64,000 bases of DNA from Schmidtea nova (taxonomy: Eukaryota), in assembly GCA_044892505.1 (NCBI GenBank), contig CM097882.1, positions 499,162,001 through 499,226,000 on the forward strand, read 5' to 3'. The notes below the pieces were generated by a model, which was not told where the DNA came from, ran no database searches, and worked only from the letters and a program-made list of their open reading frames with translations. The translations under genes and the position numbers were made by a program. Positions 2,193 to 52,204 of the stretch are shown here, one piece after another (position 1 is the stretch's first letter; every line of letters begins with the position of its first letter).

Positions 2193-4970
2193 CACATGTA
2201 ATAAGTATTTTTTTACATTGACAGTACAATCTTTTGATTTTAATCACATTGGGATTAAAATAAAACACTGACAGTTCAGTCTACTTTTTTTGTGAATATT
2301 CTGTAAGATTAAAGCTAGTTTCTTTAATTTTATTAATTGAGCAATTGGTACCATTTTCAGACTTTAGTAATTTTTTTCGGTTAATAAAGCAATACTAGTA
2401 GGGGAAGTGAGTGCTCTGGCACAAGCTAAAATGCCAGGACTGTATAAATTACGAATTAGTTATACAGTTTATCCCCCTCCCTCCTAAACAAATTTAGGTG
2501 GGAGGGGAGTGTACAAAAATTATACAATACCTCCTTAATTGTGTAGTCGATTACCTAACGTGTTACACAACATTTCCAATTAATTAACCGATGACGTATA
2601 AATGAAATGTCAAATAATCTTTTTTCAAAAAATTTCAAATTTATTAATTTTTTATAAATTTTTTTCAAAAACTTTAGAATAACATGGAGAATTTTAAAAA
2701 TCAGTTCTGCGTGGACAAATTCACAGGTAAAAAAGGTTTATTATCACAATTTTTAAAATGAATCGAATTTTAATATTTTTTATGGTAACCTATTAAGAAT
2801 TGAATTGCGGACAAGAATACATAAAAATTACAACATAAAAATCACTCTCTTCCGACAAAAAATCACACATAAAATGGCTCAACCCTCATAATTTCCAAAA
2901 ATTAAAAATTACTTTAAATTAAAAATTTTTAATGATAACATATTTGGAATTGAATTAACAATAAAAATACATAAAAACAAATGAGATAAAAAACTGCTCT
3001 CTTAAATGAAAAACAAAATTACCGGTAAAATTTCAAACAATCAAACAACGACAAAGTGAAAGAAAATCAGTATAGATTACTCTCCCAAGTCAAAATTTCA
3101 TGTAAAAAGTGTTGACTCTTGGAAAAACTAAAAATTATAAGTTATCAAGTAAATAGAAACATAATAAATTTTTTGATGAAAATATATTAACACAAATGCC
3201 AAGCAACAAAAAACTACTACCTCAAGTCATAAAAGATTCACACATGGAAATTAATAAACAAAAAGGATCAGCTCTCAGATTCACGTTAAATACTAATGTA
3301 AAAATACACACTCACAATTCCCAAAAATACAAAAGGTAAATTAAACTTAAAAAGAATATCATAGAAAATGAGAAATTAATTTAAATAATAGAAAGGGTTT
3401 TAAAAGCAAATCAACATTTTAAAGCCTAAAAACAAATTTTTAAGCAAAATACCTTTAATTTAAATTCAAAGAAAAAACATAAAATTCAAGGCATGAAATT
3501 TTTTAATTTTCAGTAAAAAGTCTAAAATATAAAGTTTCAAAGGAAAATTATAAAATTTCAAGTCACAAGTCTAAAAGGTAAATTACAATTAAAACTAACG
3601 ATAAAAATAATGAAAAATTATTTAAATTAATTCCAACTAACCGAATAATTATTATTAATAAATATATTTATACAAAAGAAAAACATGTTTTTTGTATATT
3701 AATTTGAGATTATTCCCTGAAAAAAATAATATTATAAAGAATAATAATTTAAATATTTATTGAAATTTTAGTCAATGTGAATTTATCACACTAGGCTCTC
3801 TTTCTTTTTCAATCAGTCGTATTTATGTAGCCAACCAGAACTTTTACACAATTACCTACAAAGCATTGGATAATTGGAGCCTGTTGGGATACAAGCGTGT
3901 ATGAATACTTGGGTATTTAAACCTGACACTTAAAGCTGATGTTGCTTTGAGTGTATCAGTTACAAGCTAAATATGGAACCGGAAACAAAAAATTTAGTTT
4001 TTGCATAACATAGGTACTAAATGTGATAAATTTGGTAGGAAAACTTTTAAAAGTCATCAATTTTAATATAAAATTTGATCAATTTTGTATATTAAAATCA
4101 ATAATAATAAAGAAAATAATACATTAAACAATAATAAATTTAAGGTAATAAATCGTTAAACAATAAAATAAGTAAAAGTAAAACCTTAACAGATAATTAT
4201 AGTTATTAATAATACAAAATAATTAAAATAAATTATTATTTAATTAAAATTTTCTTACTATTATTAAAAATAAATTAACATGGTTAAAATTAAAAAAAAT
4301 AATTCATTAAAAATATTTAAATTAATTATTTACTTGCTTTATTTGTAACCGTAATAAATTAAGGTGCTTATTTAAAATTTAAGAAAAAATCAAATGTATA
4401 TTTTATGTTTTTTGCTTACTGTATTTTAAAAATAATCATCTACTGAAAATAATAAAATTATTTTAAATATAATCATATTATGTTTATAATTTTAAGAAAT
4501 TTTAAATATAAAAGTTCAATAATTTTCATAATAATATTTCTAAGACTATAGATAAATTATTTTTATTGGGCACCGACTTCAAAATGTGTAATAAATTTCT
4601 AATGTAATTTTTAAATTTTATATTTTTAAAAATAATTAACAATTTTTGATAGATATACTTGACGAAATTGATGTTTTATTAAATATAGTTGATTTAAAAT
4701 AAATTATAAATTTAAATTATAAATTTAAAAAAATTATAAATAAAATTTATCATATTTTTTTTAATTTTTAATAATTTAATATGATATTAATGAATCATAA
4801 ATATATCTGATAAATTTTGATATAAATTACCTATTAAAACAAAAATTAAAAAATTAACAATTAAGAGATTAAAGGCTTTAAATCAAAATTATTAAAAATT
4901 ATATTATTGACTATATTAAAAAATATATAATTTGTTTAAAAACGTTGTTAAATTTTAATATTTTGTTATA

Positions 4971-6521
4971 ATGAATTCCGACGATGATAACACATGTCTA
5001 ATTTGTTACGATACTATTGAGAAAGCTGTACGATTTGAGGAATGCCTTCACAGATTTTGTATTTCATGCGGATATGAATTATTATTTCAATCAAAAAGAA
5101 AATGCCCCCTTGATAGAATTGAAATACGGAAACTTCAAATTGTAAATGAATCAGACCAAGATCACTCTCTAATCCCATTTGAACCGGTAACAAATATTCT
5201 TGTAGACATGGTAGCGCAATATCCTCAGTTATTTGTTTCGGACATTGTGATATTTTGGAATAGCTGTTTTTTGAACCTTTTTAGTGCAATAAGAGCCATA
5301 AAATTTTCATTAAAATCTATGCTATCGTTTCTGAAATCTCTCTCTGAAATACAACAAGAAATCAATTTAAATGATTCCACACGATTGAATTTTGAATGTC
5401 TATTGATGTTTAGGAAAATCAATCAAATCCAACAAAAAATCGCTAAAAATTGTGCAAAATATAACGTTTATTATTCTTTTCTCTGTCGAAGGAATAAAAA
5501 TAATTTAACTGAATTTGAAATTTCTGTCATTAATTTCAAGCATATTCAAGTGATTTTTGATTCAATTTTTTACTTTGATAGTTTTTGTGATTTTTCACTT
5601 GTATATAATTTTGTTCCTAGTTTTAGAAAAATCGAAAATCTGTTAGATTTAATTTTAAACAAAATAAAAATCATCGATAATATCAAATCATCAATGAAAG
5701 CGCTGACAATATGTTTCGCATCCAATGATAGCGAGGCATATAGATCAATAAAAAATTCTGAGGAAATAATCGATAAAAATCCCTTAATTAGCAACATGAA
5801 ATGGCATTCGGTTGATAATTATGGAGAATTTGATTTAAATAAATTTGTGATTACTCATGAAAGTTGTCCAATGGAATCTCATGGAAATTCCAGAATTCCG
5901 ATAAATGTCGATAAATCTACAAATCGCAATAAATCAATTTTGGCATTGATATCAGATTTTATTTCAACTCTAATTAATTTTAACAAAATGAAATTGTTGA
6001 AATTATTAAATGTTTTAACAACAACCGATTTTGTAAATAACGTCAATTTGGTTGTTTTGGAATTCAAAAAATTTTCAACCAATGAAAACATTCAAAAATT
6101 CTGCATGGACTTGAGAAGCAATTATTTTATTGATTTCGACCGATTGGAAATTATCGATTTACAATTCCAAAACCTTTTTCACATATTGATTTCCAATAAT
6201 CCAAATTTCGATTGGTTGAAGAAAAGTTACGATTTTAAAGTTATCAATTATTTACTAATGGACATGGAATACTTCCAAGAAATCTGTGATGAGTTTTGCG
6301 AACTTCAAAATTTTCTTTTGAATGTCTATCAAAAGTCGGATATTTTTTCTATCAGCATTTCGAATTCACTTAAAAGAGAAATTAAAACATTTTTGGTCAC
6401 TATCGAGAAATATCTTAATAATCAAGCTCATATTAATTTGGAAAAGAATTCAGAAATTTATCAAAATTATGAATTAACAAAAATTCAATTCAAAATTTGG
6501 AAAAATCAGAATTTTAAATAA
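4971..6521 (+). CDS. Intronless RING-finger protein, 516 aa (RING-HC with Asp as last ligand, putative E3 ubiquitin ligase)
   Basis: N-terminal CLIC-x12-CLHRFCISC-x10-CPLDR matches the C3HC3D RING pattern seen in TRAF/RNF41-type RINGs. The rest is an unrecognised helical region. Long uninterrupted ORF in AT-rich DNA. Confidence 0.85.
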   Translation: MNSDDDNTCLICYDTIEKAVRFEECLHRFCISCGYELLFQSKRKCPLDRIEIRKLQIVNESDQDHSLIPFEPVTNILVDMVAQYPQLFVSDIVIFWNSCFLNLFSAIRAIKFSLKSMLSFLKSLSEIQQEINLNDSTRLNFECLLMFRKINQIQQKIAKNCAKYNVYYSFLCRRNKNNLTEFEISVINFKHIQVIFDSIFYFDSFCDFSLVYNFVPSFRKIENLLDLILNKIKIIDNIKSSMKALTICFASNDSEAYRSIKNSEEIIDKNPLISNMKWHSVDNYGEFDLNKFVITHESCPMESHGNSRIPINVDKSTNRNKSILALISDFISTLINFNKMKLLKLLNVLTTTDFVNNVNLVVLEFKKFSTNENIQKFCMDLRSNYFIDFDRLEIIDLQFQNLFHILISNNPNFDWLKKSYDFKVINYLLMDMEYFQEICDEFCELQNFLLNVYQKSDIFSISISNSLKREIKTFLVTIEKYLNNQAHINLEKNSEIYQNYELTKIQFKIWKNQNFK

Positions 6522-8481: not shown

Positions 8482-10140
8482 TGTTAGAAGATGGGAGAAT
8501 CCTAAAAATATTAAAATTAAAATATTACACAATAGGGGCAGATAGATATAGAATAAATATACATATACAGGAATAAGCTACAGAAAAATTGGTTTGATGA
8601 CAACTTTCAAGATAACTATGAGGATAACAATTTGGTGATTTATTTTGACAATTATGACTATATTGATTATGTTACTATTTTATTTTATTTTGATCATAAC
8701 AATTATAACTGTATTGATTGTTTGGTTACTTTTATTTTTATGGTGATTGATGTAAGAGAAAGATTATTTAATAGATGTTATATTTTGTCAGTCCGAATTT
8801 TTAAAGAAATCATTGTTTTGCATTAAAATAAAAAATGGAAATTATAAATAACATTTGCTGTCCAATTTCAATTGTGCAGTTGCAAGTACAAAAAAAAGAT
8901 TTAATTTATTTATTTAATTAATTAATTAATTTTTATATAAAGATTATACAAAGAAATTAGTTACTAAACCAATTTATTTTGCGTAACCCCTTTATAAAAA
9001 TTTGTGTAACCATTTGATCAAGTAATTTAATATTTGCTGTATTAGAATTGTTTTGTATAAAATAATAAATTTCAATAAAAACAATACTAACGGCTAAAAT
9101 AAGTTCCAAATGTAGAACGTGGATAAAAAGCGCAACATAAACCAAAATATTCGTGATCCCAAATCATAAAGGAGTAGTGTAATAGGCTAACGGTTTTAGT
9201 AGAATGCGAGGGACACGTCGCACGAGTTCCGGCTCTTCACCTTTGGGGTTTCTAAATAATAATAAATAATAATAATAAACCATAATAATAAATAAAATAA
9301 CTTGTGAAATAAAAATGTGATATCATAATGCACATTTGTACAAACAAAAAATTGAGCAATGCTCAAAAATAAATAATGCACATATTGTGCAAGACAAACA
9401 ATTTTGCACTTAAGCGCAATTTACTAATTAAAATTAAAAAAAAATTTTTTTTAATAATGGTTTAAAATATAAAATATAATTATGTTTTAATAATAATTCA
9501 AAAAATATTTCATTGTTCAAATTAATAAGATACATGCTCTTCTTCCATAGAAACATTACAAAATTATAACTTTTTAATGATTAAAACAAAAATGAATAAT
9601 AACAACTTAAAAATAAAACAAATAAAATAATTTATTCTAATAATGCGAGAAAACACCTTTTTAACATCAAGGATGCTGGGATATCTAATAAATCTAAAAA
9701 TATTAACCCCCAATTTTGTACTTTAAAATTAACGGAAATTTCGAGGAATTAACAACATATTGGATAGACAAAGCGTATTGACATTCGAAATGAGGTGTCA
9801 ACAAGAATTTACTATATATACAGACTGATCTTTCAGTCAAACCACCCAAAAAAATTATTTGCGAAGAAGAATTGCAAATTCAGTAGTTGATATTGCAATA
9901 TAAATTCGAGCATACAAATTTACATAACCGAGCTCAGGTAACAGCATTTGGAGACTATTAACAAAGAAAACAAGATAAAAAGAGAATTTTATATAAAACA
10001 ACATTATTAATTGTGTGAAAGGTGAATATTTTATTTTGTAATATATAATTATTGTTATCAAATAAAAGTTTTGAAAGAACCAGTGTTTGACTTATTTATT
10101 TATATAAGATCATTAAGTTGAGATTCTTGGAACCTCAACA
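8482..10140 (+). mobile_element. Solo LTR (~1.66 kb) of a long-LTR gypsy family, inserted in the gag of element X
   Basis: Starts TGTTAGAAGATGGG and ends CCTCAACA, flanked by 4-bp direct repeat CTAA (8478-8481, 10141-10144). Both termini match the LTR at 61495-63208. Confidence 0.85.
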
Positions 10141-13300: not shown

Positions 13301-15769
13301 AGGAACTTCAGGCTTTCGAAAACAAGATTCACTAGAGAAAATTATTTAGACAATAAATGGGGTTAAATTCAGATCATCAATACTTGTCCGAATAATTCAT
13401 TTCTTTCGTGATCATTATATCAGTTTTAAGCATTATTTCGTATGATTCTTTTCCAACATTAGCTTCCATTGACTTGCGTTTTCGGATAAGATGACAGTTG
13501 TTGCGAGAGTGAAGGCGACGACGAGTAAAATGTTCTTGTACAATTATTTTTCCTAATGGAAAAGACATTGCTGGAGAGAATCGTCTTTACGTTTACATGT
13601 GGTATTATTATTATTTTTTTTTAAATGATAAATATTATAAATTCGGATAAACTACATTTATTATAAATCAAATATCATTAATATAACAACTTGCCTTTGA
13701 CCAAGCCACTGTTCCCCAGTTGGGATGAAGTGAACATGGATGTTTAGGCTATTCACCTGGACTCGGAAATATGGGCTGATCAATTTACGTATCGAACCAG
13801 CGATCCGCTCAGGCTACTTCTACCCGATCGGCACAAGGCCAGACACAGGCTTCAGGGGGTACGGAAGCAAAAAAAAATTTTTATTTATTTACTATTATTA
13901 TTTTTTATGGTAATATCTTTTGTGAATTTAACTCTGAGATTTGTGACAATAATCAAAATAAAAAATAAAGAAATAAACAGTAAAAATTTTAATAGTCATT
14001 CTATAATCATAAAATAATATAACAATAATAATATAATACACTAAAAAATATAAAAATATTACCGGTACGGGGTAATCGGACAGGCATGGTGTTCGATGAC
14101 CCCGCACCAACAAAAGAACGAGACTTACGATTTTCTTTTTTCGGAGATTAAAATTTAGAAATTTTCTGGCATAAAATTTTCACCAATTCTGAATAGAAAA
14201 ATTTTAAACAAAATTCTGATAAATTCCATTTTGATGGCGGTATATATACCATCGATTTTGCGTTACCTTCAGTAGTGTAATAAAACAAATTGTTCTAGAA
14301 TTTTCCTTTTAATTTTTCTAATTTAATTCTAATGATTTTCCGAAAATTAAATTCATATTTTTGTGTAATAATTTTTTACAAAACACAAATAATTTATTTT
14401 AATTCAAAATTTTTATTTTTGAATCGAAATTTGTTCGATTTGATTTAATTTACGATATTTCGATCAATATTAGTTCTTTTTGTTGTTAATGTGAAATATT
14501 TTGATAAAATCACAATTTTCGGCTAAAATTTTGTTAATTTTTTCTGCATGAAGGTTTTATAACACAATTCCGCTTTTATGGGTATTTTCAATGGGTTTTC
14601 CGCCTATTCTAACTTTTTAACGTTCTTCTTTTGATGGCATTCGATTTTTCTCGAGGTTTCAATGTAAGGGCTTTCAAACTCACAGCTAGCGCGTTCTCTA
14701 CTGGTTGATGTGTTTTGAGACCACTTCACCTTTTGGTGTTTTCCACTTAATCGCTTGGATTTTTAAAGGATTTTTGGGTTGAAACTAAATCTTGCGCTCT
14801 CTCTACCTATGGGGTTATCGCTTTATTAAAACAATTTGTGGTTTTTGCCCAACAATTGTCAGCGCCACCTTTTAGAAAGTAATTAATGTCAAGGAATGAA
14901 TTGTTGCTTGGGGTGTCTGTTGTTAAAATTCTTCCGTTGTTATAAATGAGGGCATACTCGTGTGTATTGAAATTATATTCTTTGTCTAATGAGTTGAATA
15001 AGATAGAAAATTTATCCTTAATGATTGATATTTTAGTGTTCGTTTAAGAATGATCCCCATAAACCCCACAATTATCCATACTACAATGGAAAAACTCTTA
15101 CTATTAACCATACGACTGGAGCTCGGTTTCGCCAATGTAGGACATTGATTGATGTTCGTCGAAGATTTGCTAATAGAATCTCGATACCAACAAGCACTTT
15201 CTTCTTCAAATGACTGGAAACTTACAAATCGTTGATAATTTGCTTGTTTCCATTATTTTATTTCGGTACTTTAAGTGTTTTCGCAATGATTCACAAAAGA
15301 CCTTCACTCTCAAATGATTGCAGCAATAAATTATTAGACTAGAAGCAAACCAAAATGACAAGTTTGTTATAGACATGACATTAGTAAGTTCATATTGAAC
15401 ATCGAAATTACAGATAAAATGTAGATTAAATTTCAAAGTTTCGAATGTCTTATACGTTTCTATATTTGCCACTAACCAATCAATTTAGAATGTCTGTGAA
15501 ATCAAAGTAAGACATGGAAAATTTAAAGATGATGCCATGATACCAACATTAATGAGTCTGTAGTATTTGGGGAGTAATAAGGAACGTCACTCCATACTAA
15601 ATCATAAGCACATCATTATTAATCAACAAAATTATTGGAACAGTGAATAGTAAAATGAAAATCAGAAAAACGAATAAATCATAAAATTCATCTGGACTGT
15701 AGTCCAATCTGAGGAAATTAAAAAGTTCATCAGTCTTCTCGGATAGAATAAGAAGATCTTTTAATCTTT

Positions 15770-16657
15770 TAACGTCTTTATAAACCAACGAATAGGACTT
15801 ATATTTTCTCTTAAAAGGGCCACACTTGACAAGCTGATTTGAATAACTTAACACTACATGCGTTAATTCAGAGACCGTATTTGTATCACGAACCAGCTTT
15901 ACTGTTGAACCAAATGGTGCGTAACTAACTTTTGGAAAATGTATTCTTGGATAAGGAACAAGATTTTTTAATGCTGAAAAATCATTGTATATTTCATTGT
16001 CGAATCTACTAGAGACTGTTAACGAACTACAAACTTGTGCTACCAATCTATTAATATGATGTAATGACGGCTCTTTTACATCTATTTGTTCTGGCATAAT
16101 ATCATAAAGAGATTCATTATCAATCAACAAGCTAATATCTACATCATCCATGCAAAAATATTCACTCAAAATACAATTATACTGTTAAATGATTGCACAT
16201 GATAAATTTCGACTTTGGATATTTTAGGATACTTACGTGAGTATTCAAATAATGTTGCAGTCATTCCCGATCCGATAACGCCTCATAGAGATCGAAAAAT
16301 ATGAATTCCTTGAATAGAATCATTTTTTAAATTCTTTCCTAATTCGATTTTCACATACGCCGACAGTATGGAAACCTCTTGCAAACTTGTTTGCAGCATC
16401 TTCATATCCATTAATCAGTTGATTCGAATGATACAACTGACGACAAGGTCCAGATCTCATTTGTTCAGTAACAGTCGGTTCAAGATCTACAAAGATGCTA
16501 CGAAGAACAAATTGACCAGACATTGACACATTGAAAAAAGTATTGTAAGAAACTTTTTCATCAACAACTCCATTATTCATTAAGCCGTCTTTTGATATAC
16601 CATGTTCAGCTAAAATCAGTTCCTAGAGTGCGGAACCAATTTGAATTTCAATTTGTT
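15770..16657 (-). pseudogene. Intronless, degenerate alpha-tubulin copy
   Basis: QIGSAL*ELILAEHGI, RSIFVDLEPTV, EDAANKFARG, RSL*GVIGSG, NRLVAQVCSSLT, KNLVPYPRIHFP and NQLVKC are collinear with alpha-tubulin. Contains in-frame stops and a frameshift near 16325. Confidence 0.85.
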
Positions 16658-18921: not shown

Positions 18922-19549
18922 TTGAATAAGAAATACAGTCATGACACCCAAGTCGACGAATATCCAACCAAATTCCAAAACCCAGCGCGGAAAAGATCCA
19001 CCATTTATTTCGGAAATGGAAAAGTCAATCAAATTGGTTTCTGGCCATTGAAGCAGGCCCCACTTGGAATATTAAACGATATTCACCGCCAAATCCGAAA
19101 CTGGCGCAATTTATTCAAAACTCAAGTTTCATTTGGCTTGTGGGAAAAATCCAATGAACACCTTTGGTATGAGGGAGGCCTATTATGGCCATTAGAAAAT
19201 CCTAAAATCGTCTCTAAAAATGGTTCGTACTAAGATGGGTAATCGCGTTCTGTATTATTCCGACTCGCAAGCTCCACCGACTAGAATATGTATTACTTGA
19301 TCGGCCGCGACAGTTAGGAAACGAGGAGTACCACGAAATCTCAATCTGCCATTTAAGTTCCATGGAGAATGGAGGGATTTCTCAAATGGAACCCGACAAA
19401 TTGTAATCAAAGAAATTTTCGTATACAACACAAGACTATGCTGGACCCTGAATCCTGATATTTACTACCCGAGTGGCATTGCCAAAGAGGAAGCCGAAGA
19501 AATTCAAGACTGGTCGTGCATGAATACCGAGGATGACTGGACACTAGAG
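18922..19549 (+). pseudogene. Disrupted homolog of the unit-D upstream ORF (ORF1-like)
   Basis: WPLKQAP..DIHRQI and FGLWEKSNEHLWYEGGLLWPL align with LPLKNIPTDLARQI and FSLHRNSPDIVTWHGSRLWPI of 51000-51440. Stops follow 19233; truncated by the hAT insertion. Confidence 0.5.
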
Positions 19550-20605: not shown

Positions 20606-20824
20606 GGATAGAGAGTCACCGGAATTGGGGCGAAAGGTGGAGAGAGAAGTGGAGAGAGAAGTGGGCATTCGCTGAATGGATGCACATTCGAGTAGACCTG
20701 TTGAAAGGCTTATCAGAACGCCAATTAATAAACTTAATTGATAGCAAGGTTTTTTGGAGTAAAACAAATGTATTTGATGTCTTATGAAATTGTTAATTAT
20801 CGAATATTGAGAATAAATATTGAG

Positions 20825-20935
20825 TATAAATACTGAACCGGATTTTACTAAATTTAATGATTGAATGATCTTTCTGATCAAAATTTTTTATGAGCTGAAG
20901 TTTATTATCAAACAACTTAACGTGAAAGGTATGAA
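20825..20935 (+). promoter_or_regulatory. Unit A putative TATA box, short first exon and splice donor
   Basis: AGTATAAATACTGAACC and CGTGAAAG|GTATGAA are both shared with unit E (58370-58478); CCAAT lies upstream. Confidence 0.55.
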
Positions 20936-21056
20936 CGTTTTATTTTATTGCTTTATATAATTTTTATTATTATGATTTCTGTCAAATGTTTTAACGATTC
21001 AATAAATTATGATATAAATTTTTTCTTTGAATTTTATATGACGAATGAAAGGTGCG

Positions 21057-21234
21057 CTCCTTCCACTGTGTAATCGGTGGAAGGAGGCGAAATAAATTGT
21101 TTTCTATCTATTTATGATTAGAGGGAGCTCCTTTTCATTGTGTAATCGGTGGAAGGAGGCAGACTTCACCGGGGTGGCATAGTTACCTCCGTGAAGTTAG
21201 GCCATTTTCATAGTATTCAGTGCCATGAAGACGG
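21057..21234 (+). ncRNA. Unit A three-hairpin structured RNA element (first hairpin duplicated)
   Basis: Stems CTCCTTCCACT/GGTGGAAGGAG, GACTTCAC/GTGAAGTT with inner GGTGGC-ATA-GTTACC, and TTTTCAT/ATGAAGA. Compensatory changes versus 58613-58720. Confidence 0.6.
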
Positions 21235-21892
21235 TAAGGCATTTTACAATTAAATTTCTTATGATATTAACCTCGGCCAGTATAGCCAGAATTGCTATTA
21301 GTTTTACATCACGAACGACTTTTATCTAGCAATAAATGAGTTTTATTACTTAATTTTTTGAAGTTAGAATAAATGAATTATTCTAAACGACATCGCAGTG
21401 TTCTGTAGAGATTGCCATCAAGGGTTTGGAGCATGAGGTTGTCAGAGATTTTTGTGAACATTAAGAAATAAAAACCGGATAAAGTTTCAGGGACTAACCA
21501 GCATATTTATCATTTAAAATGAAACTTAGAATGTCAATAATTTTGCACATAATACATACCGTGAGATATTTTTTAAGGGTACCGATTATATAAATTATCG
21601 ACGAGAAAGAAGCCCGACAACATAAATTTTGGTCAGAGGTTGCGGTGGTAGTAAAAAGCTCAATTGGAACGTTCTCCATATCAAGTATCATTTCTGATCA
21701 GTAACAAATAAAACAAATAAAAGTTATCATATCTGAACCAAAATTGTGCATATTGAAAATCAGGTAAGTAGGTCCATTCCAATGTATGCGTCAATGTGGG
21801 TAGCCTGCAATGACCTACCGTATCTCATAAGAAATATTTATCGATCAGCCAACTATCGACTAAAATCAATGAATAAAATTTAATTAAATAAT

Positions 21893-22020
21893 CTGATCCC
21901 TGTACATAGAGCAGAAGAATTCATTTTTATAAACTAAATTATTATCCTGATTGCTGTAGATAGCACAGGTGCAAATAAATATTCTAAAAGAATTTATCTG
22001 ATCGCTGTACATAGTGACAG
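21893..22020 (+). promoter_or_regulatory. Unit A array of three small hairpins, each carrying TGTANATA
   Basis: CTGAT-stem-GTANAT-stem-CAG three times at ~52-nt spacing; conserved in unit E. Confidence 0.6.
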
Positions 22021-22226
22021 TGTTTGAAACGTATAGTGTATTTTGCTTCATTTCCTAATTTCAACGTAATAATTAAATGAACCTCAAGGAAATCATCAGA
22101 TAAATCATGACATAGAACCTGTCAATATAATAAGAATTTTTATCAATTCAACCGAAACTCATTCATCAATAACTAATTACGAAAACTAAAGAACAAATAG
22201 AAATAACTCTAATTGATTTCAGGAAA

Positions 22227-22820
22227 ATGTCGACCCATCAAACAAAATCGCAAACTGAATTAGATAAGGCTTGGCGAATCATTCGCAGCCTCGAGAAGGA
22301 AGTTAACATAACAAGAGAAAAATTGAAAGAATCGGAAGCCACAAATTCTCATCTGCGTAAAAGTTGGTTCAGTCCTGAACAGATGAAGAATCAACTCGTG
22401 AAAAATCAACGGACGCAGAGAGCGGGGGAAGAGTATCGGACAGATCTCGAGGCAACCAAAATCGAGCTACGGAAATGCCTCAAAGCGGTCACCGCATCCT
22501 TCATCGACAGTGAACTCAAACAGCTAATACGGCCAGTTACCCACCAGCACTGGTCCGAGGAAAAAGCCGGATGTTTCAAAGGAACAAATACTGAAGGGCC
22601 ATCGCAAACCCTCGAGATTAACACACCAACAACAGCACTGATTACGAATAAATCTTCAGCCATTGAGATTAAAAAGAATAACAAAATGGGAGCGAGACAG
22701 AGAAGGTGGATAAAACAATTCGCCCAGAAAATAATTCATCACAACGACGAACTACCAGAAATCGACTTGACGGCAGATTTCATGTCATTGGATGAAGATT
22801 TTTTTAAATATTTTGATTGA
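22227..22820 (+). CDS. Unit A coiled-coil protein, 197 aa (only copy with no premature stop)
   Basis: Acceptor TTTCAG at 22217-22222 just before the ATG. Heptad-rich N-half, motif LEATKIELRKC...FID.EL..LIRP.T.QHW, basic GARQRRW and acidic-hydrophobic tail LPEIDLTADFMSLDEDFF. Four paralogues in the window. Confidence 0.75.
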   Translation: MSTHQTKSQTELDKAWRIIRSLEKEVNITREKLKESEATNSHLRKSWFSPEQMKNQLVKNQRTQRAGEEYRTDLEATKIELRKCLKAVTASFIDSELKQLIRPVTHQHWSEEKAGCFKGTNTEGPSQTLEINTPTTALITNKSSAIEIKKNNKMGARQRRWIKQFAQKIIHHNDELPEIDLTADFMSLDEDFFKYFD

Positions 22821-23053
22821 TTGGCTAAATTTAAAGCTCGATTAGATTGTACAAATATAGTTTTATTAATTCCTTTGTTTTGTAGTTCATTAAAATTTCG
22901 TAAAATAAGATAGTTAACAGGAAAATTATTATTAAATAATTTAAGTTTATACAGTACAAATTATTCTGGTATAAAATAATTAATAAAGATGGTAGATCAA
23001 CATTAGGATTGAAAGTAAAACATATCATAATTATTCGAATTAACTGTTGTTAT

Positions 23054-23310
23054 TGTAAACGGGGGCAGTAGCGATAAAATGAAAGACAAGGGATTCAATA
23101 AAGTAAAGTGAAAGTAAAGCGTAAGTCCTTCTATCGGCAGCAATGTACACGTGAACATAAATGGGGAGTAGTTCTAGAAATGTAGCTCACCTGCCCATCA
23201 TTGTTCAAACACCTTGCACAGTTCCAACTCGATTATCCAGGGAAATAATCGAGGGTTCTTGTGCGTCACGAATGCATTTTATGTTTGGTCGTGGATGGAG
23301 GCATCCCTAG
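23054..23310 (+). ncRNA. Unit A downstream structured RNA
   Basis: CCTTCTATCGG motif; long hairpin TGAACA-ATGGG/CCCAT-TGTTCA with GAGTA / TCACCTG internal loop; hairpin CTCGATTAT/ATAATCGAG; ends CCCTAG. 23074-23145 is identical to 60599-60670 (72 nt). Confidence 0.7.
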
Positions 23311-23984
23311 AGCATTTTAACTTATTTAATCCCATCCATGGCCACAACACTTAGTTTCAAATATCGGTCAAAATATTTCTTTTGACTCTTTGAATACTCT
23401 TAGTTTCAAATATCGGTAAAAATATTTCTTTTGAAATATTCAATCTGTTTTCTGTAGAAGATAATTAATTCTTTGATAATATGCTCTAAATATCTTCTTC
23501 AGTTGAAATATCTTGATATTAGTGGAGATTGTAAATTGGAAAAATGTATAAAATTTGATTAATCTTCTGCGTAAATAAAATTGACTGGAATTTTCTTTAA
23601 GCTTATAATTTTTAATTTTTAATTATTTATTCAATTTTCTTAATTTTTCTTTAATTTGGCTTACTATAGCAATTTGCTATAGCAAGCCAAATTTAAATTC
23701 AAAATTTAAATAATTAAAATAATAATAAAAATAATTCCCAAACCCAATGCACCTAAATAATAAAAAAGGGGGGGTTCCGGTATACACAATACCATCTACA
23801 ATAACCATAACAACAATACCAATTATTCCTGTACATTACACACATGTTAATGTTTTTATGTTGGCGGGGTTGCCCTAATGATTAGAGCCAATCAGTCCAT
23901 CAAGTAAATCCCAAGTTGAACCACACCTACCAACGCACCAACATTATTTATATTATTCATCAAAATAGAATCTGATTTAATCTG

Positions 23985-25164: not shown

Positions 25165-25990
25165 ATACACCCATACCTCGCTATAACGGCCCTCTTCAAT
25201 TAAGGCACGTTTTGATTTACGGCCTAAAATGTTTCGCTATAACGGCAAAAAAACTTTTTTTCGATGTCGATATATCTACATGTTGCAAATTTTACGCAAT
25301 CACAATCTCGATGAACTCTTTTCTATTTCCTCTTGTTTACGAGCGTTATTCAGTGTGTGCTCATAAAGCGGCTGGTTTAGACTTGTCTGTGAGTGTTTTA
25401 TGTTTTATGAAAATATTAACATTAAATTTTTACACACAGGTAAGTTTGTGTGTTCCTATAATATAATTTTATCGATTTTTTTAGATTATAGAAACTTTTA
25501 TCTTTCGGAATTAGGTGTATTTATTACTGATTGTTACACATTAACTGGAAAAATTGGAAACAATTAGGGACATTTTTTATACGTAAGTACATATGTATGT
25601 ATGTATAAATTAAATTTTTTTAATATGTATTTTTTTATTAAACTTATTTTATAATTTCATTATTTTTTAGACAAAATGCCACCGAAACGATTATTGACTT
25701 CGGAGACTAATAAAAAGAGATGCCGAAAATCAGTCACGCTAGGAACCAAACTAGAAGTATACGGAAGGCTAATAATCATCAAGGACAAACAACAGAGGCC
25801 TCAATGAGTGGTCTATTGGGGATACATCCCACGTTAGGAGTTTATGGAACTGGGTCTGACGATTGTGATGTCAATTCGGCCAATCAGAAGTTCTCAGGAG
25901 AAGTTGCTCAAATTCTCTATTTCCGATTTGCGAAGGAAGCCTCTTCTCGAGGGTTTGAAAATCCGACAGGTCTTTGCCAAAGACAATGAT
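25165..25990 (+). mobile_element. pogo/Tigger-like transposon 5' fragment
   Basis: Tigger-like end TA|CACCCATACCTCGCTATAACG. MPPKR...KKRCRKSVTLGTKLEV from 25677 resembles the CENP-B/psq HTH N-terminus; frameshifted. Confidence 0.55.
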
Positions 25991-26198
25991 CTAGTGTTTG
26001 ATTGCAATATTGATTAGCGCTTGTAGTTATAAATAAACATTGTGTTAATTTGATCGTAACTTTTGGATATTGAAACTTTTTTATTAGACTTGTAAAATTA
26101 AATTATGGTTTAAATCCGGCAGTCGGATAGCCTTTATGAATTATTAGAATTAAATCAAAGTTTAGATTTACTAAAATATGTCATTATTCCTCTCCAGC

Positions 26199-26780
26199 AT
26201 GAACGAACGCTTCAACCATCAAGCAGAACTGGAGAAGGCTCAGAGGATACGGAAGAGCCTAGAGAAGGATATAGAGCACTGCAAAGCGCAAGCGACCCGG
26301 TTCGAGATACAAAAGTAATACTTGAGACAAAAAAGGTTCATCCCTGCGCGGATGAAAGACCAGATTAGTCGCACTGAACGCGCCACGGCCGAAACAAAGA
26401 TAGAACTGGAGGCCACAAAGATAGAATTGTACAAGTGCTTGCACTCAGTACCCCCTCTCATTCATCGACGCAGAACTAAAGTCCTACATCCGTTACATTA
26501 CTTACCAACACTGGGCTACGGAACAAAAGTCCACTTGTTCGATAGGGACCTGCGTCAACGACTTGGCCGAGATCTCACCCTGTCCCCAGTTCAATCAACG
26601 GAGTCGTCCATGATGCCAGCACAGACAAATAAAAGGAAACGAATCGGATCAAATCGGAGAAGGTAGAAAAAACTTTTCTCCCAGCAGTTTATAGTGCAAG
26701 TCGATCGCTTGAACGATTTATCTGAATTGGATTTGCTCGTGGAAATCTTGCCATTAGTCGAAGACCCATCTAGTGTTCAT
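26199..26780 (+). pseudogene. Unit B coiled-coil protein (disrupted paralogue of 22227-22820)
   Basis: Acceptor CTCCAG before the ATG. ELEKAQRIRKSLEK...LEATKIELYKC, then frameshifted FIDAELKSYIRYITYQHW, then GSNRRR*KKLFSQQ and LNDLSELDLL. Confidence 0.75.
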
Positions 26781-26939
26781 AAACAATCAATGTATTGTAT
26801 ATTTCTGTTATGTTCATTTTTGTCATTAAGCAATAAAACGTAGAGAGGTTTTATTAAAACTGTTATAATACGACGATTCGTGTTTGTAGAAAACGATTTA
26901 TTACCAAAGATTTTAAAGAACAGAGTCAGTTAGTGAGAG

Positions 26940-27353
26940 CATATAGAGAGCGTAATTCCGTCTAACGGCCGCTGGAACCGGAAGTGAAAGGAAGAGTGGA
27001 GAGTAGTCTTTGCGAAAGGGCTTGCCAGTCCACTCGTCTTTCACCGTCGTACACAGTTCCAACATGGCCCCAGGGGGAATGGCCATCGGTGTGCGAGCGA
27101 GATGCATACATACTTATGTTAGGGTGTGAGTCACCTAGATTTCACACACCACGTCAAATTTTACGTCCACGCCACAACCCAGCAAAAGGTTTGAATTTTC
27201 GACGCTCACACTTTGCGGACATTCACCCATTTGTTGCATTACCAGCGTTACTTAGTTACGGACAACAAGAAATTTAAACTAATGTTTTGTATGTTGAGTT
27301 GTTTATAGAAGCCACATCAACGTCAACATCATATTGACGGTCAACCATCCACT
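26940..27353 (+). ncRNA. Unit B downstream structured RNA, continuing into a gag-leader-like segment
   Basis: GTGAAAG-GAGTGGA/TCCACTC-CTTTCAC stem with GAGTA / TTGCCAG loop and GCGA tetraloop; CGTACAC/GTGTGCG enclosing AGTTCCAA; CACCTAG. 27201-27353 is homologous to 10356-10509 (minus strand). Confidence 0.65.
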
Positions 27354-30099: not shown

Positions 30100-31455
30100 A
30101 CGATTTAATCCAGGGAAAATACAATTTATATATTTCGACAAATTCCTTATTCTCATCATAAAAGAATACTCAAAAACCCCCAGGCATATATATTTGAATT
30201 AATTAAACCATCTAGAGGCTAATTAATTATAAAAAAATATTGTTATAAATATTTTTATAGACGTTAGGTGTCATTACAATTTACTTTGCTCTTTAATAGA
30301 AGAACAGCACTTCAAGTGCAAACAAGAGGGCAAATACGAATTGCCATTAATTTCTAATCAATAAATATTCAACTTTAATCTCACATTATTCGAAATATAA
30401 AAACTAAGGTGATTCTTTTATGGGATTTTTCAAACAATTCTTGTTTTTGATGAGGTCTTATTATTGGTATGTATTATTATTATAAATATTATTATTGATT
30501 ATTGTATTAATTATTGGTTANNNNNNNNNNNNNNNNNNNNNNNNNNNNNNNNNNNNNNNNNNNNNNNNNNNNNNNNNNNNNNNNNNNNNNNNNNNNNNNN
30601 NNNNNNNNNNNNNNNNNNNNNNNNNNNNNNNNNNNNNNNNNNNNNNNNNNNNNNNNNNNNNNNNNNNNNNNNNNNNNNNNNNCTAAATGCTCGTTTGAAG
30701 GCAAAAAGGATGACATTGAACAGCGTAGGCATAAAAGATCAGGTGTATATTGACTGTTACAATGGAAATACAATACCAAAGGTAATTTCGCTNNNNNNNN
30801 NNNNNNNNNNNNNNNNNNNNNNNNNNNNNNNNNNNNNNNNNNNNNNNNNNNNNNNNNNNNNNNNNNNNNNNNNNNNNNNNNNNNNNNNNNNNNNNNNNNN
30901 NNNNNNNNNNNNNNNNNNNNNNNNNNNNNNNNNNNNNNNNNNNNNNNNNNNNNNNNNNNNNNNNNNNNNNNNNNNNNNNNNCTAAAGGCTCGCTATTGTC
31001 TTTTGAGAGCAAACAAAAGGCACTTACTGCCAGAAAAGATAAGTACTAAGTGCTCAAAAATAAACACGACACATTTTGTGCAAACTATTTTTTTAAAATA
31101 TAAAATAAAGTGTGTTGACACTCGAAATGGAGTGTCAACAAAAATTTGATAGATAAGTAGACTGATTTCTCAGTCAAAACCACCCTTAAAATCTTGTAAT
31201 CTAAGAAGAGTTACAATTTCGGTAGACGACATTTGTAACATAAATTAGAGCATACAATATTTACACATTCGAGCTCAGGAAACTGCAAACACTTATATAC
31301 ATATACACAAAAAATTCAAAATTATTATATTTTTGGGGTAATTGTTATTTTTATTAAATTTGTAATTGTTATAATTAAATAAAATTTTAAAGAACCAGTC
31401 TTTGTTTTTTTATTTATATAAGAAACATCAAGTTGAGATTCTCGCAACCTCAACA
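29019..31455 (+). mobile_element. Solo LTR of the long-LTR family (with gaps and probable nested material), inserted in pPolB
   Basis: Starts TGTTAG and ends CCTCAACA, with TTTT on both sides. Shares 5' (ATAGGG.CA.ATAGATA) and 3' (CAGTCAAA.CCACCC, GAGCATACAA, GAGCTCAG, GTTGAGATTCT) blocks with the other two LTRs. Confidence 0.75.
30521..30981. other. Two assembly gaps (30521-30682, 30793-30981) around a 110-bp island
   Basis: N runs. Most of the island repeats ~31680-31770. Confidence 0.95.
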
Positions 31456-31790
31456 TTTTTCTAGAATGTAAAAATATAAATTTACAAAAGCTGTTTGCAG
31501 CAATGATTATCAATAAGTTACTGGATACATCAGATTATGATCCGTCACACCCTCTACTCAAAAATGTTGAATTCTGTTATCAGAAAGTTCAAAGATGAAG
31601 GTAAGTGCAACGGATATAAAGTGGATTATTTTACGACCGATGTGTTATAGCCTATTGTCAAACGATACTAATAAAATTATGAAGGCAAAAAGGATGACAT
31701 TGAACAGCGTAGGCATAAAAGATCAGGTGTATATTGACTGTTACAATGGAAATACAATACCAAAGGTAATTTTGTTAAATTTATTTAAAT
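31456..31790 (+). pseudogene. Polinton/Maverick pPolB, C-terminal part
   Basis: LDTSDYDPSHPLYSK...KFKDEG...LRPMCYS...MKAK resumes where GDTDSFL was interrupted. Confidence 0.8.
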
Positions 31791-33345: not shown

Positions 33346-33858
33346 ATGGGGAAAAATCTACACTTATGCAAAATGCGCTATGCAGGAGAAAGCATGAAAA
33401 CAGGCAGCAGTAGGCAGGTTAAAAAGGAGAATTTTGGATCTAGAGAATTCATGGAGAATTCACCAATACAGATGAAGGAGGCCAAAACTAAAGCCGAGAG
33501 ACTCAAATCAGCAAACAGTGAATTGACAACCGAATTGCAAGCTTCCAGAATAGAGCTGAACAACTGCAAGAAATGAATAAACCGAGAGTTCATTGAGCAA
33601 GAGTTGAAGGGAAGAATCAGACCCCTAACGTTTGAAAGATGGGTTCCAAATTGTTCTTTGACCGAATTGGAGAAATCCATCATCCAAGTAATGAACCAAA
33701 CCCAAATGGCATGTAAACTTTCTGGACCCAGAGGAAAGAAAATACGAAAGTTATGAAGAGAGCGTGATCACCAATTCGAATTGAAATTGACGAAACAAGT
33801 GGAATACTTAGATGGTCTGGACTAGATTGATTTATTTGACGAAATCACCCTCTTGTAA
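33346..33858 (+). pseudogene. Unit C coiled-coil protein (diverged, three in-frame stops)
   Basis: Acceptor CCTACAG upstream. LQASRIELNNCKK*INREFIEQELKGRIRPLTFERW...GPRGKKIRK...YLDGLD*IDLFDE. Downstream region ends GCCCTAG at 34181. Confidence 0.65.
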
Positions 33859-34199
33859 TGGTATATACCCAATATACTCTTCTATGTTTAAATCCGTTTT
33901 TTGTGCCTTAGTTTAACTCCGTAATTTAGCTTAAATAGCAGATCATTCCGCGAAGCTCGACAACTAAATATTTTCTCTTGAGTGGCGTACCAGTCTTGAA
34001 AGTAGAACTGCCTAAATCAGTGACCAGAAGGACATGTTAGTAATTGAGTGATAAACGGATCACTCTAATCACAGATACCGTAATGAACACTACCAAACTG
34101 TTTACTTGGTGTAATCATGGGTACACATACGATGTTAAATGTAAAGTCTTGCAGTTAATTGTGTAGTCTATTTAGCCCTAGATACATCTTGTTCACTAC

Positions 34200-34380
34200 C
34201 AACTAACCAACACGTCTTTGGCTGTTTTCATATCGAATCTACCTATTCGCATAAGTATCGGTAATGCAAATCTACCTATTGCTTTCAACCATCCTGAACA
34301 ATATTGCTTACATACAAAATATGATAACTCACCACCATTTTGGCTATTAATAAAAATTGAAACTATATCTGAAACTATAT
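34200..34380 (-). pseudogene. Polinton/adintovirus small core-like protein remnant
   Basis: QNGGELSYFVCKQY..GWLKAIGRFALPILMRIG..MKTAKDVL resembles the Q.GG...F.G.....G....L.R.A.P.L...A.DVL core-protein pattern. Confidence 0.5.
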
Positions 34381-36840: not shown

Positions 36841-36986
36841 CACTCCGCAAAGAAATATTTTAGAATGTAAAAGAACAAAATATTCATAAATGCATTATTA
36901 ACATAAACATTTTTAACTATTATTTAATAAATTTAATACTGTAATATTAAATTGCAATCGTTCAATATAGTGATTTTTAAACCCAT

Positions 36987-37475
36987 ATGGCTACCTACAC
37001 ATCCCGTAAAAAACAACTATCTAGCGAAAGCAGAGCGTCGATATGTCAAAAATATCAGTCCGGCAAATCCATAGTGACAATTTCTCGTGAACTTGATCTC
37101 CCATATAAAGCAGTAGCAAATATAGTGCGAATTTTCAGAACCATCGGAAGAATATACGCCAAGAAAACGAGAATAGCCAAGATTCCACTGATTTCAGCCG
37201 AAAATAAAGAATTCATCAGGCAGGAAAATGACAGAGATGTTAGCATCACGTTAAATCAGTTGCAGGATCGATTGAGAGTTCATAAGGGTGTCTCGGCGTC
37301 ATTGTCAACAATAAATAATGCCATACTGTCGTTCTCTTATACCCTAAAACGCGTGAAATTTGTTGCGGAGAGAAGCCAATCGACTTCAATTACGGAGGCC
37401 CGGTTTCATTATGCCAATGAATTTTTACTGTTGAATGAAGAAAAAGTTATTTATTTTGATCAATTTGTAAAATAA
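36987..37475 (+). pseudogene. IS630/Tc1/mariner-family transposase N-terminal half
   Basis: Two HTH-like segments (GKSIVTISRELDLPYKAVANIVRIF; ITLNQLQDRL...SASLSTINN) then ARFHYA...KVIYFD, ending at the first catalytic Asp. Confidence 0.75.
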
Positions 37476-39615: not shown

Positions 39616-43506
<3,891 letters not shown>

Positions 43507-45696: not shown

Positions 45697-47915
45697 CAAG
45701 GGTCGGCAAAATACGGCCCGCGGGCCAAGTACGGCCCATTCGGTATTTTATTTTGGCCCTTCAAGACTTTTATTACCACCTTGTTATTCGGCCCGCTTTG
45801 GTTTAAATTATTTCAGCTTCTCAAAAAATTCAATTCAAAGTAAAATAATGTGAACCTTCAAAAACTCAATTTAATTTATGAATATACAATTTAAAGTTGT
45901 AGGTAAGTACCAATAATTAAAATATTGTGTTTACGCCTGAATAATTTTCTGATGGTTTAGCGATTGTTGTTACGTTACGCATTGCAGTTGTAGTTGCAGT
46001 ATACAAATTACAAAAACCGAAAAATTCATTCCAAACTAAAGTTGTTTTTTTTTTAAAAAAATTGACGTTTCGTATTTGTTTCTTCTGTGAATTCTTGATT
46101 CTTGGAAAATTAAAATGTTAATTTATTATTTAACAATTGAAAGTTGTTGGTAAGTACCAATAATTAAAAAAAGTTTATGAGTACATAAAATTATCTATTT
46201 ATTTATTTTCTTAATTAACTATGATTTTAATGTGTTTATTTAGCTCAAATATAATTCCAAAATCTAACCAAAAAAATCAATAACAAAAAAGATTAGTGGT
46301 CGGAATCAAATTTCAATACTGCTACCTGCAACTAGTAAGTTTTTTATTATTACAATTTTTAAGTGTTGTCTAAATTTTAATTGAAATATAAAAATATTTT
46401 TGTACATTAATATTTGTTAGCTTATATATAAATATTTTATTCTATTTTTAGCAAAAATAATTTTATTACAAACGCCTTCAGCAATGTTGTCAAAAAAACG
46501 TAAAGTAGATTCTGAAGGAAGGGTTTTCAATAAAAAATGGACATATGACTATTTTTTCGTGGAATATAATAAGAAAGCGTGCTGTCTTATTTGTAGAACG
46601 ACAGTTTCCGTATTTAAGGAATATAATGTACAGCGGCATTATAATTCGCAACATAAAGAGGAATACAGCAAGCTTCAAGATAGTTCAAGAACAACAGAAA
46701 TAAATAAAATGAAGATTTCTCTGACAAACCAGCAAACTTATTTCCACAAAATTAAAAACAAAAATGAATCACTGATACGAGCAGGTTATAAAGTTGCCTA
46801 TTTAATTGCATGTAATGGAAAACCATTTACTGAAGGCGAATTTTTAAAACAATGTATGCAAGAAGTTATTGCGGAAATTTTACCAGAAAATAAAAATATC
46901 ATTTCAGATTTAAGCCTTTTAGCACGAACTATAACAAGACGAATAGAACACATAGGCAGTGATCTTTTCGACACATTAAAAAAACAATCAAATACGTTTA
47001 AATATTTTTCAATTGCTATGGATGAGAGCTGTGATATTAATGATACAGCTCAACTTATTATATTTATTAGGGGTATAAATAGTAAATTCGACGTATGTGA
47101 AGAGTTAGCTGCTTTGTGCAGTTTGAAAGATACAACAACAGCTGCAGATATATTCGTTCATGTTGAACAAACTATTGAATCGCTAGGATTGAACTGGAAA
47201 AATTTAAAAGGAATTACAACAGATGGAGCCCGAAACATGTGTGGTTATAAGACCGGAGTAGCTGTTTGTATTAGCAATAAAGTGATATATTCAGGTGGTG
47301 AACCCCCAATTATTTTCCACTGTATAATTCACCAACAAGCTTTGTGCATGAAAAATTTAAAATGGAAATCAGTTATGGATGTGGTCATTTCTATAATAAA
47401 CTTAATAAGGCGACACAGTTTGAACCACCGCCAATTTCAGGAGTTTTTAGTACAAATTGAAGCCGAGTACGGTGATGTACTTTATCATACTGATATTAGA
47501 TGGTTAAGCACTGGTAATGTCCTTAAAAGATTTTTTTATTTAAGAGACGCTATTGATATTTTTTAAACGAAAAAGGAAAAAGAAGAATGGAATTATTAGA
47601 TCCGGAATGGCTACTTGATTTAGCTTTTTTAATTGATATCACTTCATTGATGAATGAATTAAATTTAAAACTACAAGGCAAAGATAAATTGGCTCACGAA
47701 TGTTTTTCTGATATTAAATCTTTTGAAATGAAATTACGATTAATCAAATCCAACATTTTGCAGAAAAAGTTTCACAATTTACCATTTTGTTCAATTATTA
47801 TGGAAAATAATTCACATTTAATTTTACATAAATTTGGAGATTACATTGATATGCTTCAAAATGAATTTGAAACACGGTTTTCTGATTTTCATAAACACTC
47901 GAAGACATTTAAACT
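45697..47915 (+). mobile_element. hAT (SPIN/Buster, GTF2IRD2-like) transposon, 3' truncated; transposase 46484-~47915 with a frameshift near 47566
   Basis: TIR-like CAAGGGTCGGCAAAATACGGCCCGCGGGCC. BED finger CLICRTT...QRHY, SIAMDESCDINDTAQL, ITTDGARNM, HCIIHQQAL and RWLS motifs. Confidence 0.9.
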
Positions 47916-51440: not shown

Positions 51441-51646
51441 TCCTTCTGGAGTGCAGGAGTTTGATTAAATTTTACAAGAATTAACCTCGTTCGGCATATT
51501 AATGTATTACTTGATGAGAGTAGCGAGGGTGGGGGAACGCCCAAGTAAGGATGGTTTTGGGGGAAGGAGATATCCAACGAGCAGTTATTGGAGAGTGATG
51601 ATGGCGGGGAATAAAATCTAATATTTGTTATTTTCCAAGGGAACCA

Positions 51647-52051: not shown

Positions 52052-52204
52052 TTTCAATTTTAGTGCAAATTCATGTTTAATTAATATATGTATATGAAAT
52101 TCGTTATAGTTATTGTTGTTTAATTTTTGTTTAGTATTAAGCTTAAAGTTAATAATTTAAACGAAGGAGTTCGTCACCAATTACTAGGAAGAGTAGGCTA
52201 GGCT

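Follow-up and report, generated by a model that had tools for sequence, protein, structure and literature searches.

The open reading frame (ORF) at positions 22227–22820 (+) is a real, selected accessory gene, which lies within the long terminal repeats (LTRs) of the giant flatworm Burro elements of the Ty3/gypsy type. Here, the window denotes the whole stretch of 64,000 nucleotides of the Schmidtea nova genome that was analyzed. A sequence-only reading of this DNA had proposed a small Rev-like protein made from a spliced mRNA in a Ty3/gypsy lineage. Supported are the Ty3/gypsy context, by polyprotein, LTR and accessory domains, which identify the elements as Burro, and a small gene under selection behind a conserved acceptor, by the dN/dS ratios and the YAG ahead of the ATG. 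Overlooked at that stage were the location of the gene inside the LTR, a second LTR gene in several subfamilies and the nature of the window copies as decaying LTRs.

The planarian Burro elements carrying the ORF, referred to as the coil gene, have LTRs of 2.6–3.2 kb, and the full-length elements of this genome span 22–27 kb from LTR to LTR. The coil gene reads in the same sense as gag-env-pol, and the LTR's own TATA box lies 1.2–1.7 kb upstream of it. In four young full-length elements the LTR pairs are 99.88–99.97% identical, the ORF is intact in the 5' and the 3' LTR alike and a primer-binding site follows the 5' LTR; over the young elements as a whole, the identity of the LTR pairs is 99.05–99.97%. 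One young element displays the LTR ends TG..CA together with a 4-bp target duplication. Two further pairs of matches were rejected as LTR pairs, being segmental duplications.

A single gag-env-PR-RT-RH-IN polyprotein of ~5,000 aa is encoded by these elements, and a gag search of the genome yielded numerous frames, either 4,118 or about 5,140 aa in length. For the polyprotein of the young element L081-L082, Pfam revealed in this order CCHC, Monjiviricetes_fusion (mononegavirus-type), RVP, RVT_1, RT_RNaseH, rve and then ankyrin. RING and TRAF/MATH are located on ORFs apart from the polyprotein. The ankyrin, MATH/TRAF and apoptosis/ubiquitin accessory domains of Burro are represented by Ank, MATH, zf-TRAF and RING in Pfam; BIR and BCL2 domains gave no Pfam match in the Burro elements scanned. 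In another copy (L035-L039), gag, an env-like fusion protein, a protease as well as ankyrin and TRAF pieces lie between two LTRs that are 99% identical. This is the layout of the Burro/GYPSM1 elements as reviewed in PMC6431247, where a length of likewise 5,140 aa is given for a Burro-like element. The text of the review mentions accessory ORFs, but no LTR gene, splicing programme or RNA fold. Subfamilies C and D were assigned to Burro via the common coil gene, orfX (the second LTR gene) and the 3' RNA fold; in none of the four pairs of subfamily D LTRs examined was a Burro internal region found between them.

Within one young subfamily (L085-L088; G000:C1:400165001-400205000) the polyprotein frame has 4,118 aa, where related subfamilies have 5,140–5,147 aa, and may have become non-autonomous through an internal deletion; no RT match was obtained among the 15 pieces scanned of L035-L039, a copy related to it. 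A separate observation concerns the start of the polyprotein. In Y1, Y2 and Y3, its frame is open for exactly 153 codons ahead of the first Met (L081:5529-5987; L085:5655-6113), and an acceptor-like site is present shortly upstream of this stretch. The mRNA of the polyprotein may itself be spliced.

The window harbors five copies of the coil gene, starting at 22227 (A), 26199 (B), ~33400 (C), 51647 (D) and 59735 (E). Only in copy A is the frame open, from the ATG at 22227 to the TGA at 22820 (197 aa); B, C, D and E contain stops and B additionally a frameshift. Copy A belongs to a Burro LTR remnant at 20820–23349 (+), which lacks the 5' portion of U3, CCAAT box included, keeps an intact CA at its 3' end and is not followed by a primer-binding site. 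The remnant of copy B (25760–27183, +) contains a broken orfX (25760–26002), a coil gene with ATG at 26199, stops at 26316 and 26664 and the frameshift, and a 3' RNA element at 26951–27131. Copy C (33394–34211, +) retains a broken coil gene and a weak match to the 3' element (34078–34135). In copy D (50949–52541, +), an open orfX (50991–51440) precedes a tailless coil gene, whose real start is the ATG at 51647, with a stop at 51695 and its end at 52051; the 3' element lies at 52261–52438. Copy E (58052–60868, +) is a near-complete LTR with CCAAT, TATA, donor, hairpins and 3' element (60645–60835), and its coil gene runs from the ATG at 59735 over a stop at 59780 to 60325. An orfX fragment at 18988–19224 (+; tblastn E 1.5e-10) marks a further remnant. 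A primer-binding site is absent behind the LTR in copies A–E and in 0 of 30 A loci genome-wide was one found; the window copies are therefore solo or truncated LTRs in decay. On the minus strand, 10417–10575 matches the 3' RNA element weakly (E 1.6e-5) and represents another decayed LTR end; the notion that all remnants lie on one strand was dropped because of it.

Selection on the coil gene was assessed within the genome itself. A search with the ORF gave 8,621 first-look candidates, 150 of which were scored, all at least 64% identical. The best 30 matches of subfamily A comprise 17 without a stop in the match and 13 with stops. Pairwise dN/dS amounts to 0.11 for A (30 copies), 0.17 for D (29 of 30, one duplicate dropped) and 0.10 for the core of B (29 of 30, the window copy dropped), and in A dN is smaller than dS in every one of 365 unsaturated pairs. 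Two shifted frames, used as control, gave 1.16 and 1.56. The gene has thus evolved under strong purifying selection (dN/dS 0.10–0.17). Within the A protein, the basic helix shows the lowest value (0.02), followed by the second coil and core (0.07) and the tail (0.12–0.13). Variants common to several copies have a dN/dS of 0.12–0.20, vs. 0.74–1.08 for those of a single copy, and stops confined to one copy are about as frequent as expected under neutrality (15 stops vs. 183 missense changes; 34 of 461 non-synonymous sites lead to a stop). Constrained shared variants together with near-neutral single-copy variants and stops indicate selection during replication and decay after insertion.

The encoded protein consists of a first coil (aa 4–47), a WFSP kink and a second coil with the conserved core (aa 50–110), followed by a disordered linker, the basic helix and the acidic tail. 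An AlphaFold model of the A protein (pTM 0.26) displays helices at 4–47, 50–114 and 156–173, with linker and tail disordered. The heptad phasing of coil 1 is clean, since the hydrophobic fraction is 0.60 and 0.89 at two phases and at most 0.28 at the other five; the heptads of coil 2 are less clean. Judged from model and phasing, the protein would likely form a coiled-coil oligomer. The basic helix (aa 149–165; 22671–22721, +), helical in the model, is a putative nuclear localization signal and a candidate RNA-binding motif. With an RR core, it recurs in five subfamily representatives that are mutually 27–57% identical; it is Lys-rich in A and Y1, with only three Arg in A, and Arg-rich in Y2 and B. 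As the most constrained region of the A subfamily that recurs across subfamilies, this basic stretch is more than chance, although it may serve only as a nuclear or nucleolar localization signal. Of the oligomerizing coil and Arg-rich motif proposed beforehand, a coiled coil and a basic helix are supported by helices, phasing and conservation, and the basic motifs and hydrophobic spacings that had been listed for copies A–E are all present in the sequence.

Relatives of the coil protein were sought in several resources. Pfam contains no family for it. Among 5.8 billion proteins, 0 of 274 candidates reached E≤0.001, and a profile search of 1.84 billion representatives gave 0 matches. The ESM Atlas provided only leads under 0.9, a Foldseek search of BFVD with the model gave 0 matches at E≤0.001, and 0 of 163 pattern matches in metagenome contigs were confirmed. 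All these are collections in which planarian transposon proteins may be lacking.

The acidic hydrophobic tail (aa 176–197; 22752–22817, +) is a candidate docking motif of uncertain type, and the proposed CRM1-dependent nuclear export signal (NES) in it is not supported as a family feature. For NES, the classes 1, 1b, 1d, 2 and 3 are defined, and these definitions were used. The tails were scanned for forward class 1/2 patterns with shuffled tails as control. Subfamily A, to which the ORF itself belongs, matches in 3/30 tails vs. 66% of the shuffled tails, so the NES-like spacing noted there is not above chance. Forward classes were further found in Y2 in 0/3, in D in 0/30, in C in 2/7 and in Y1 in 5/6, in another register. 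In readable old B tails 15/18 match, 14 of them with class 1b in one register, at a background of 73% of shuffles matching some class; windows of the polyprotein match forward patterns as well (46/146). The third hydrophobic position of the NES is Ala in young Y2 and Glu in the young B element, and the tail is absent from 30/30 subfamily D proteins, though D is still under selection. Reverse class 1d fits 23/30 and class 3 fits 18/30 of the A tails, for which reason an unusual type of NES may be present in A.

What stays fixed across the tailed subfamilies is a hydrophobe, Glu at +2, Leu at +5 and Ile/Phe at +9. Since this spacing is kept and the third NES position is not, the tail reads as an acidic docking helix that is not specifically an NES. 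By its pattern, the tail of A is like a SUMO-interacting motif, as is that of Y1, or like an activation domain. The host is a dugesiid planarian, its exportin-1 exon being 97–98% identical to the Dugesia japonica protein. At the end of the D core (L051-L080), a Leu-x-Leu spacing could fit NES class 1d; it is probably structural and was not counted.

The LTR contains the signals for a spliced transcript. An inferred TATA box at 20825–20832 (+), conserved in A, E and Y2, is followed by a candidate major splice donor at 20926–20934 (+; intron start 20929), which is conserved behind the TATA box. Here, 108 sequences were scanned, most of the loci being too short to reach the TATA box; among the 19 with a TATA match, 17 have a donor 68–193 nt behind it. 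The patterns used missed both sites in the young B LTR. Located 74 nt behind the donor is an AATAAA (21001–21006, +), a possible R/U5 poly(A) signal, and AATAAA or ATTAAA is found 57–83 nt behind the donor in 11 of the 17 sequences. Further AATAAA occur behind the ORF, which leaves more than one candidate limit for R and U5. A second donor-like site (21761–21768, +) is conserved less than the first. On either side of the LTR's TATA box lie repeated CTGATC motifs and an inverted repeat (L081:185-225; L085:160-240; window 58342-58385).

A branch-point-like CTAAT and an acceptor with its AG at 22221–22222 (22209–22222, +) lie 4 nt ahead of the ATG at 22227. A YAG ending 1–8 nt ahead of the start of the coil gene is present in 29/30 A loci, vs. 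163/742 background ATGs upstream, and subfamily D has a conserved T-rich acceptor with AAG. The accessory ORFs resemble the coil gene in this respect, with a YAG at most 8 nt ahead of the start in 6/7 in Y2, 4/6 in Y1 and 5 of the 6 listed in young B (all ATGs: 23–27%). Donor and acceptor being conserved and most accessory ORFs having acceptors too, a splicing programme of the kind seen in complex retroviruses is likely for the Burro elements. Four sequencing runs of unstated kind, mapped to a young LTR, gave no GT..AG joint among the 15 of 33 joints listed, which is no evidence either way. Spliced-leader trans-splicing was also considered as a use of the acceptors and is less likely, given the conserved cis donor.

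Three structured RNA regions (21057–21234, 21893–22020 and 23054–23310) had been postulated, and all of them turned out to be conserved and to fold or to covary. The most widespread is an element of ~190 nt at the 3' end of the LTR (23120–23310, +), preceded by a purine-rich run from 23057. Every subfamily examined has it at some of its loci (A, B, C, D, Y1 and Y2). After removal of 9 candidates without both anchors and 8 near-duplicates from the earlier set, 54 of 66 distinct copies with both anchors were aligned; the remaining 12, 11 of A and one of B, were set aside because of truncation or to reduce the share of A. In this alignment, 21 of 31 predicted pairs change on both sides, several with three or four pair types, and 96% of the cells are paired vs. 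29–44% with the partners slid; 0 of 500 shuffles reach 96%. This is strong, though not independent, proof, since one alignment of related copies served both to derive the structure and to test it. G-U wobbles favor the sense strand, and the single-sequence fold is modest (z −1.5). Rfam has no family for the element and gave chance-level matches only. Resemblance of the RNA elements to an IRES or a ribozyme was considered and dropped, as no support was found.

The other two regions lie in the predicted intron. At 21057–21234 (+), two type-I hairpins and two further hairpins fold with a z of −6.2, a value inflated by mutual pairing of the two repeats. Type-I hairpins occur in 18/30 A loci and in four copies in Y1/Y3, are absent from B, C, D and Y2, and covary weakly. 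At 21893–22020 (+), three tandem bulged hairpins of type II are present (21893–21914, 21947–21968 and 21998–22020), found in 28/30 A loci, in Y1/Y3 and in 11/30 B loci; D and Y2 lack them, as does the young B element. Their stems change in a compensated fashion between the tandem copies; 15 distinct units are 91% paired vs. at most 89% in shuffles, with two pairs fixed by the search, and the single-sequence fold has a z of −1.4. The intron hairpins are lineage-specific, within a scope in which no more than 1.5 kb upstream of the coil-gene match was covered for the loci of B, C and D.

For the coil protein we consider most probable, among the readings weighed, a role as an RNA-binding switch which would favor the full-length, unspliced genomic RNA, similar in function to Rev or to the CERV protein of Caenorhabditis elegans, by whichever export route. 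We hold this reading tentatively, at somewhat below an even chance, and its strict version with a CRM1 NES is unlikely. Transcription would start behind the TATA box of the LTR, and by default the LTR donor would be joined to one of several acceptors, giving small mRNAs for the LTR gene, orfX, RING, TRAF and others. The LTR protein would be an early product, first made from the fully spliced LTR transcript, which would oligomerize via its coils and bind LTR RNA via the basic helix. Intron-containing genomic RNA would thereby escape splicing, early polyadenylation or nuclear retention. The need for such help would lie in the genomic RNA itself: donor, intron hairpins, 3' fold and primer-binding site all have to stay in it, and its many acceptors are a reason to require a factor for unspliced RNA. 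Most subfamilies would use the acidic tail to bring in a host factor, not necessarily via a CRM1 NES, whereas D manages without a tail. Because protein and 3' fold are present in all subfamilies examined and the intron hairpins are not, the 3' fold is the better candidate for the target. Counting against the RNA switch are the unconserved NES core, a basic helix that may do no more than direct localization, the missing intron hairpins in Y2 and the young B element, and that no homologue or fold match points to a function.

A broader version sees Burro elements as complex retroviruses of flatworms and their LTR as a regulatory cassette, made up of promoter, major donor, one or two spliced genes and the shared fold. 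The coil protein would here be an independently evolved Rev analogue that acts on the 3' fold to switch from spliced to genomic RNA, and solo LTRs would be self-contained gene copies able to supply or to poison this switch in trans. We regard it as rather doubtful.

The retroviral systems HIV Rev/RRE, HTLV Rex/RxRE, HERV-K Rec/RcRE and MMTV Rem employ a small protein from a spliced mRNA, with an arginine-rich motif and an NES, for the export of unspliced RNA, and in HIV Rev the domains are ordered oligomerization region, basic motif, tail. The Burro protein is likewise small, with a basic motif, a putative oligomer region, a hydrophobic tail, a predicted fully spliced mRNA and structured RNA nearby. 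In contrast to these proteins, it has a long coiled coil and no conserved NES, its gene sits beyond the LTR promoter, towards R/U5, and no similarity in sequence or fold to them was found (Pfam, BFVD at E≤0.001, profile search). MMTV sag, lentiviral nef and foamy virus bel are ORFs in or overlapping the LTR, too, but these lie in U3 upstream of the promoter. The ORF of Burro follows 1.2–1.7 kb downstream of the TATA box, so that promoter, intron and gene are all contained in a solo LTR.

The sequence-only reading was not aware of an analogous system being described in an invertebrate Ty3/gypsy lineage. As a claim of novelty this is wrong, since CERV of C. elegans Cer1, a Gypsy/Ty3 element, is a protein from a spliced mRNA required for export of the unspliced genomic RNA, as demonstrated by mutants (PMC10309623); the concept is thus already known for invertebrate gypsy elements. 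CERV has H, M and G domains, and its ORF lies after pol, ahead of the 3' LTR, and shares gag exons (PMC10309623). Cer1 groups with an env-carrying flatworm element (PMC13524379). Both proteins combine a coiled-coil part with a basic localization signal (putative in Burro), come from a spliced mRNA (predicted for Burro) and would be needed because the genomic RNA retains splice sites. By its description in PMC10309623, CERV differs from the Burro protein in length, position and predicted model, the latter having ~200 aa, lying entirely within the LTR and being predicted all-helical, with an inferred role. In foamy viruses, the major splice donor is located in R upstream of the poly(A) signal of the LTR (PMC3694450). 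The Burro donor likewise lies soon after the start and is followed by AATAAA in 11/17 sequences; unlike the foamy virus signal, that of Burro is only a candidate, with more AATAAA behind the ORF.

Several other functions have to be weighed against the RNA switch. A transcriptional trans-activator of the foamy-virus Tas or Tat type, which would dimerize via the coil, bind promoter DNA or nascent hairpins via the basic helix and activate via its acidic aromatic tail, is improbable in our view. Such a role would suit a tail that is acidic and whose fixed hydrophobic positions follow Phi-x-E-x-x-L, with I/F further on, and not the Phi-x-Phi of an NES core, the FxxFF-type motif at the end of the A tail and the CTGATC repeats with the inverted repeat around the TATA box. 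It fits poorly to subfamily D, which is tailless and yet selected, and to a basic region that follows the coil after ~40 disordered residues, a layout unlike that of bZIP factors. The conserved hairpins allow another interpretation, as hairpins behind the major donor have equally the look of a retroviral packaging signal. If the RNA elements were signals of packaging, dimerization or reverse transcription for Gag or RT, the LTR protein would act in the cytoplasm, as an RNA chaperone or a cofactor of the particle, and would take no part in the fate of nuclear RNA. The position of the hairpins between donor and first acceptor, the 3' fold ~40–70 nt ahead of the primer-binding site and a Gag with CCHC knuckles would agree with this, but the strong NLS-like basic run and the separate spliced-type start appear more typical of early nuclear regulators, which makes this option distinctly improbable.

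Basic coiled-coil suppressors of silencing exist in RNA viruses, and the coil protein might be a small counter-defence protein of this kind, acting against piRNA/RNAi silencing, or an adaptor docking on the SUMO/ubiquitin machinery. The element is rich in genes for host interference (RING, TRAF/MATH, ankyrin), the A/Y1 tail reads like a SUMO-interacting motif, and Burro1 is repressed by SMEDWI-2 (PMC8532177). We rate this role as quite unlikely: suppressors are often fast-evolving, whereas core and basic helix are very constrained here, and the retention of the gene in the LTR beside the RNA elements would be left unexplained. An ORF without function for the element, or one taken over by the host, is hardly credible. 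The stops in 13 of the best 30 A matches and the near-neutral single-copy variants would be compatible with it. Against it stand the strong constraint on shared variants, seen in three subfamilies, and the intact ORF that the young elements examined carry in each of their LTRs; the roughly neutral rate of single-copy stops argues against host selection on most copies. The dN/dS analysis largely refutes this reading.

No description of an ORF, splice sites or an RNA fold in Burro LTRs was found in the literature searched; the 2018 genome paper or the Repbase entry may already draw the ORF. The LTR-embedded gene cassette is apparently undescribed, in a known family of elements. In the main model animals of regeneration, few retroelements are as large and as abundant as Burro, and the expression of its many genes seems undescribed as well. 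Here, the LTR cassette, the acceptors of the accessory ORFs and the shared covarying fold provide a concrete and testable expression model. If the protein is Rev-like, invertebrate gypsy elements would have arrived at two unrelated solutions, CERV being the other. Solo LTRs, in which promoter, intron and ORF are retained, could be mis-annotated as host genes or act on live elements in trans.

Ahead of the coil gene, Y2, B, C and D carry the second LTR gene, orfX, which A/Y1 lack. The gene encodes about 150–160 aa, Trp/Gly/Pro-rich and predicted as alpha/beta, and has its own acceptor. Copies are located in the window at 50991–51440, 25760–26002 and 18988–19224 and elsewhere at L081:1158-1631 and L147:2996-3472. 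Pfam and the Atlas gave no match for orfX, and its model is of low confidence (pLDDT 48).

The window contains further mobile and viral sequences. A fragment of an endogenous rhabdovirus nucleocapsid is present at 49245–49733 (+; PF00945, E 3e-24). At 39969–43460 (−), a frame of 1,163 aa joins HSP70, ubiquitin and a DUF1759 (BEL/Pao-type gag) region; since a similar frame exists in L040-L041, it may belong to a mobile family with captured host genes. A perfect inverted repeat of 183 nt (39616–39987) adjoins this frame. Also present are a RING-finger ORF, a tubulin fragment, a Tc1-like HTH, two hAT-like transposase remnants and a DUF7041 gag fragment (4959–6521, 15597–16622, 36981–37475, 46421–47928, 54831–55979 and 61021–61500). 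A second, short LTR family is found at 9770–10140, 31107–31458 and 62900–63211, and behind its copy at 62900–63211 lie a gag-like region and a primer-binding site of another kind.
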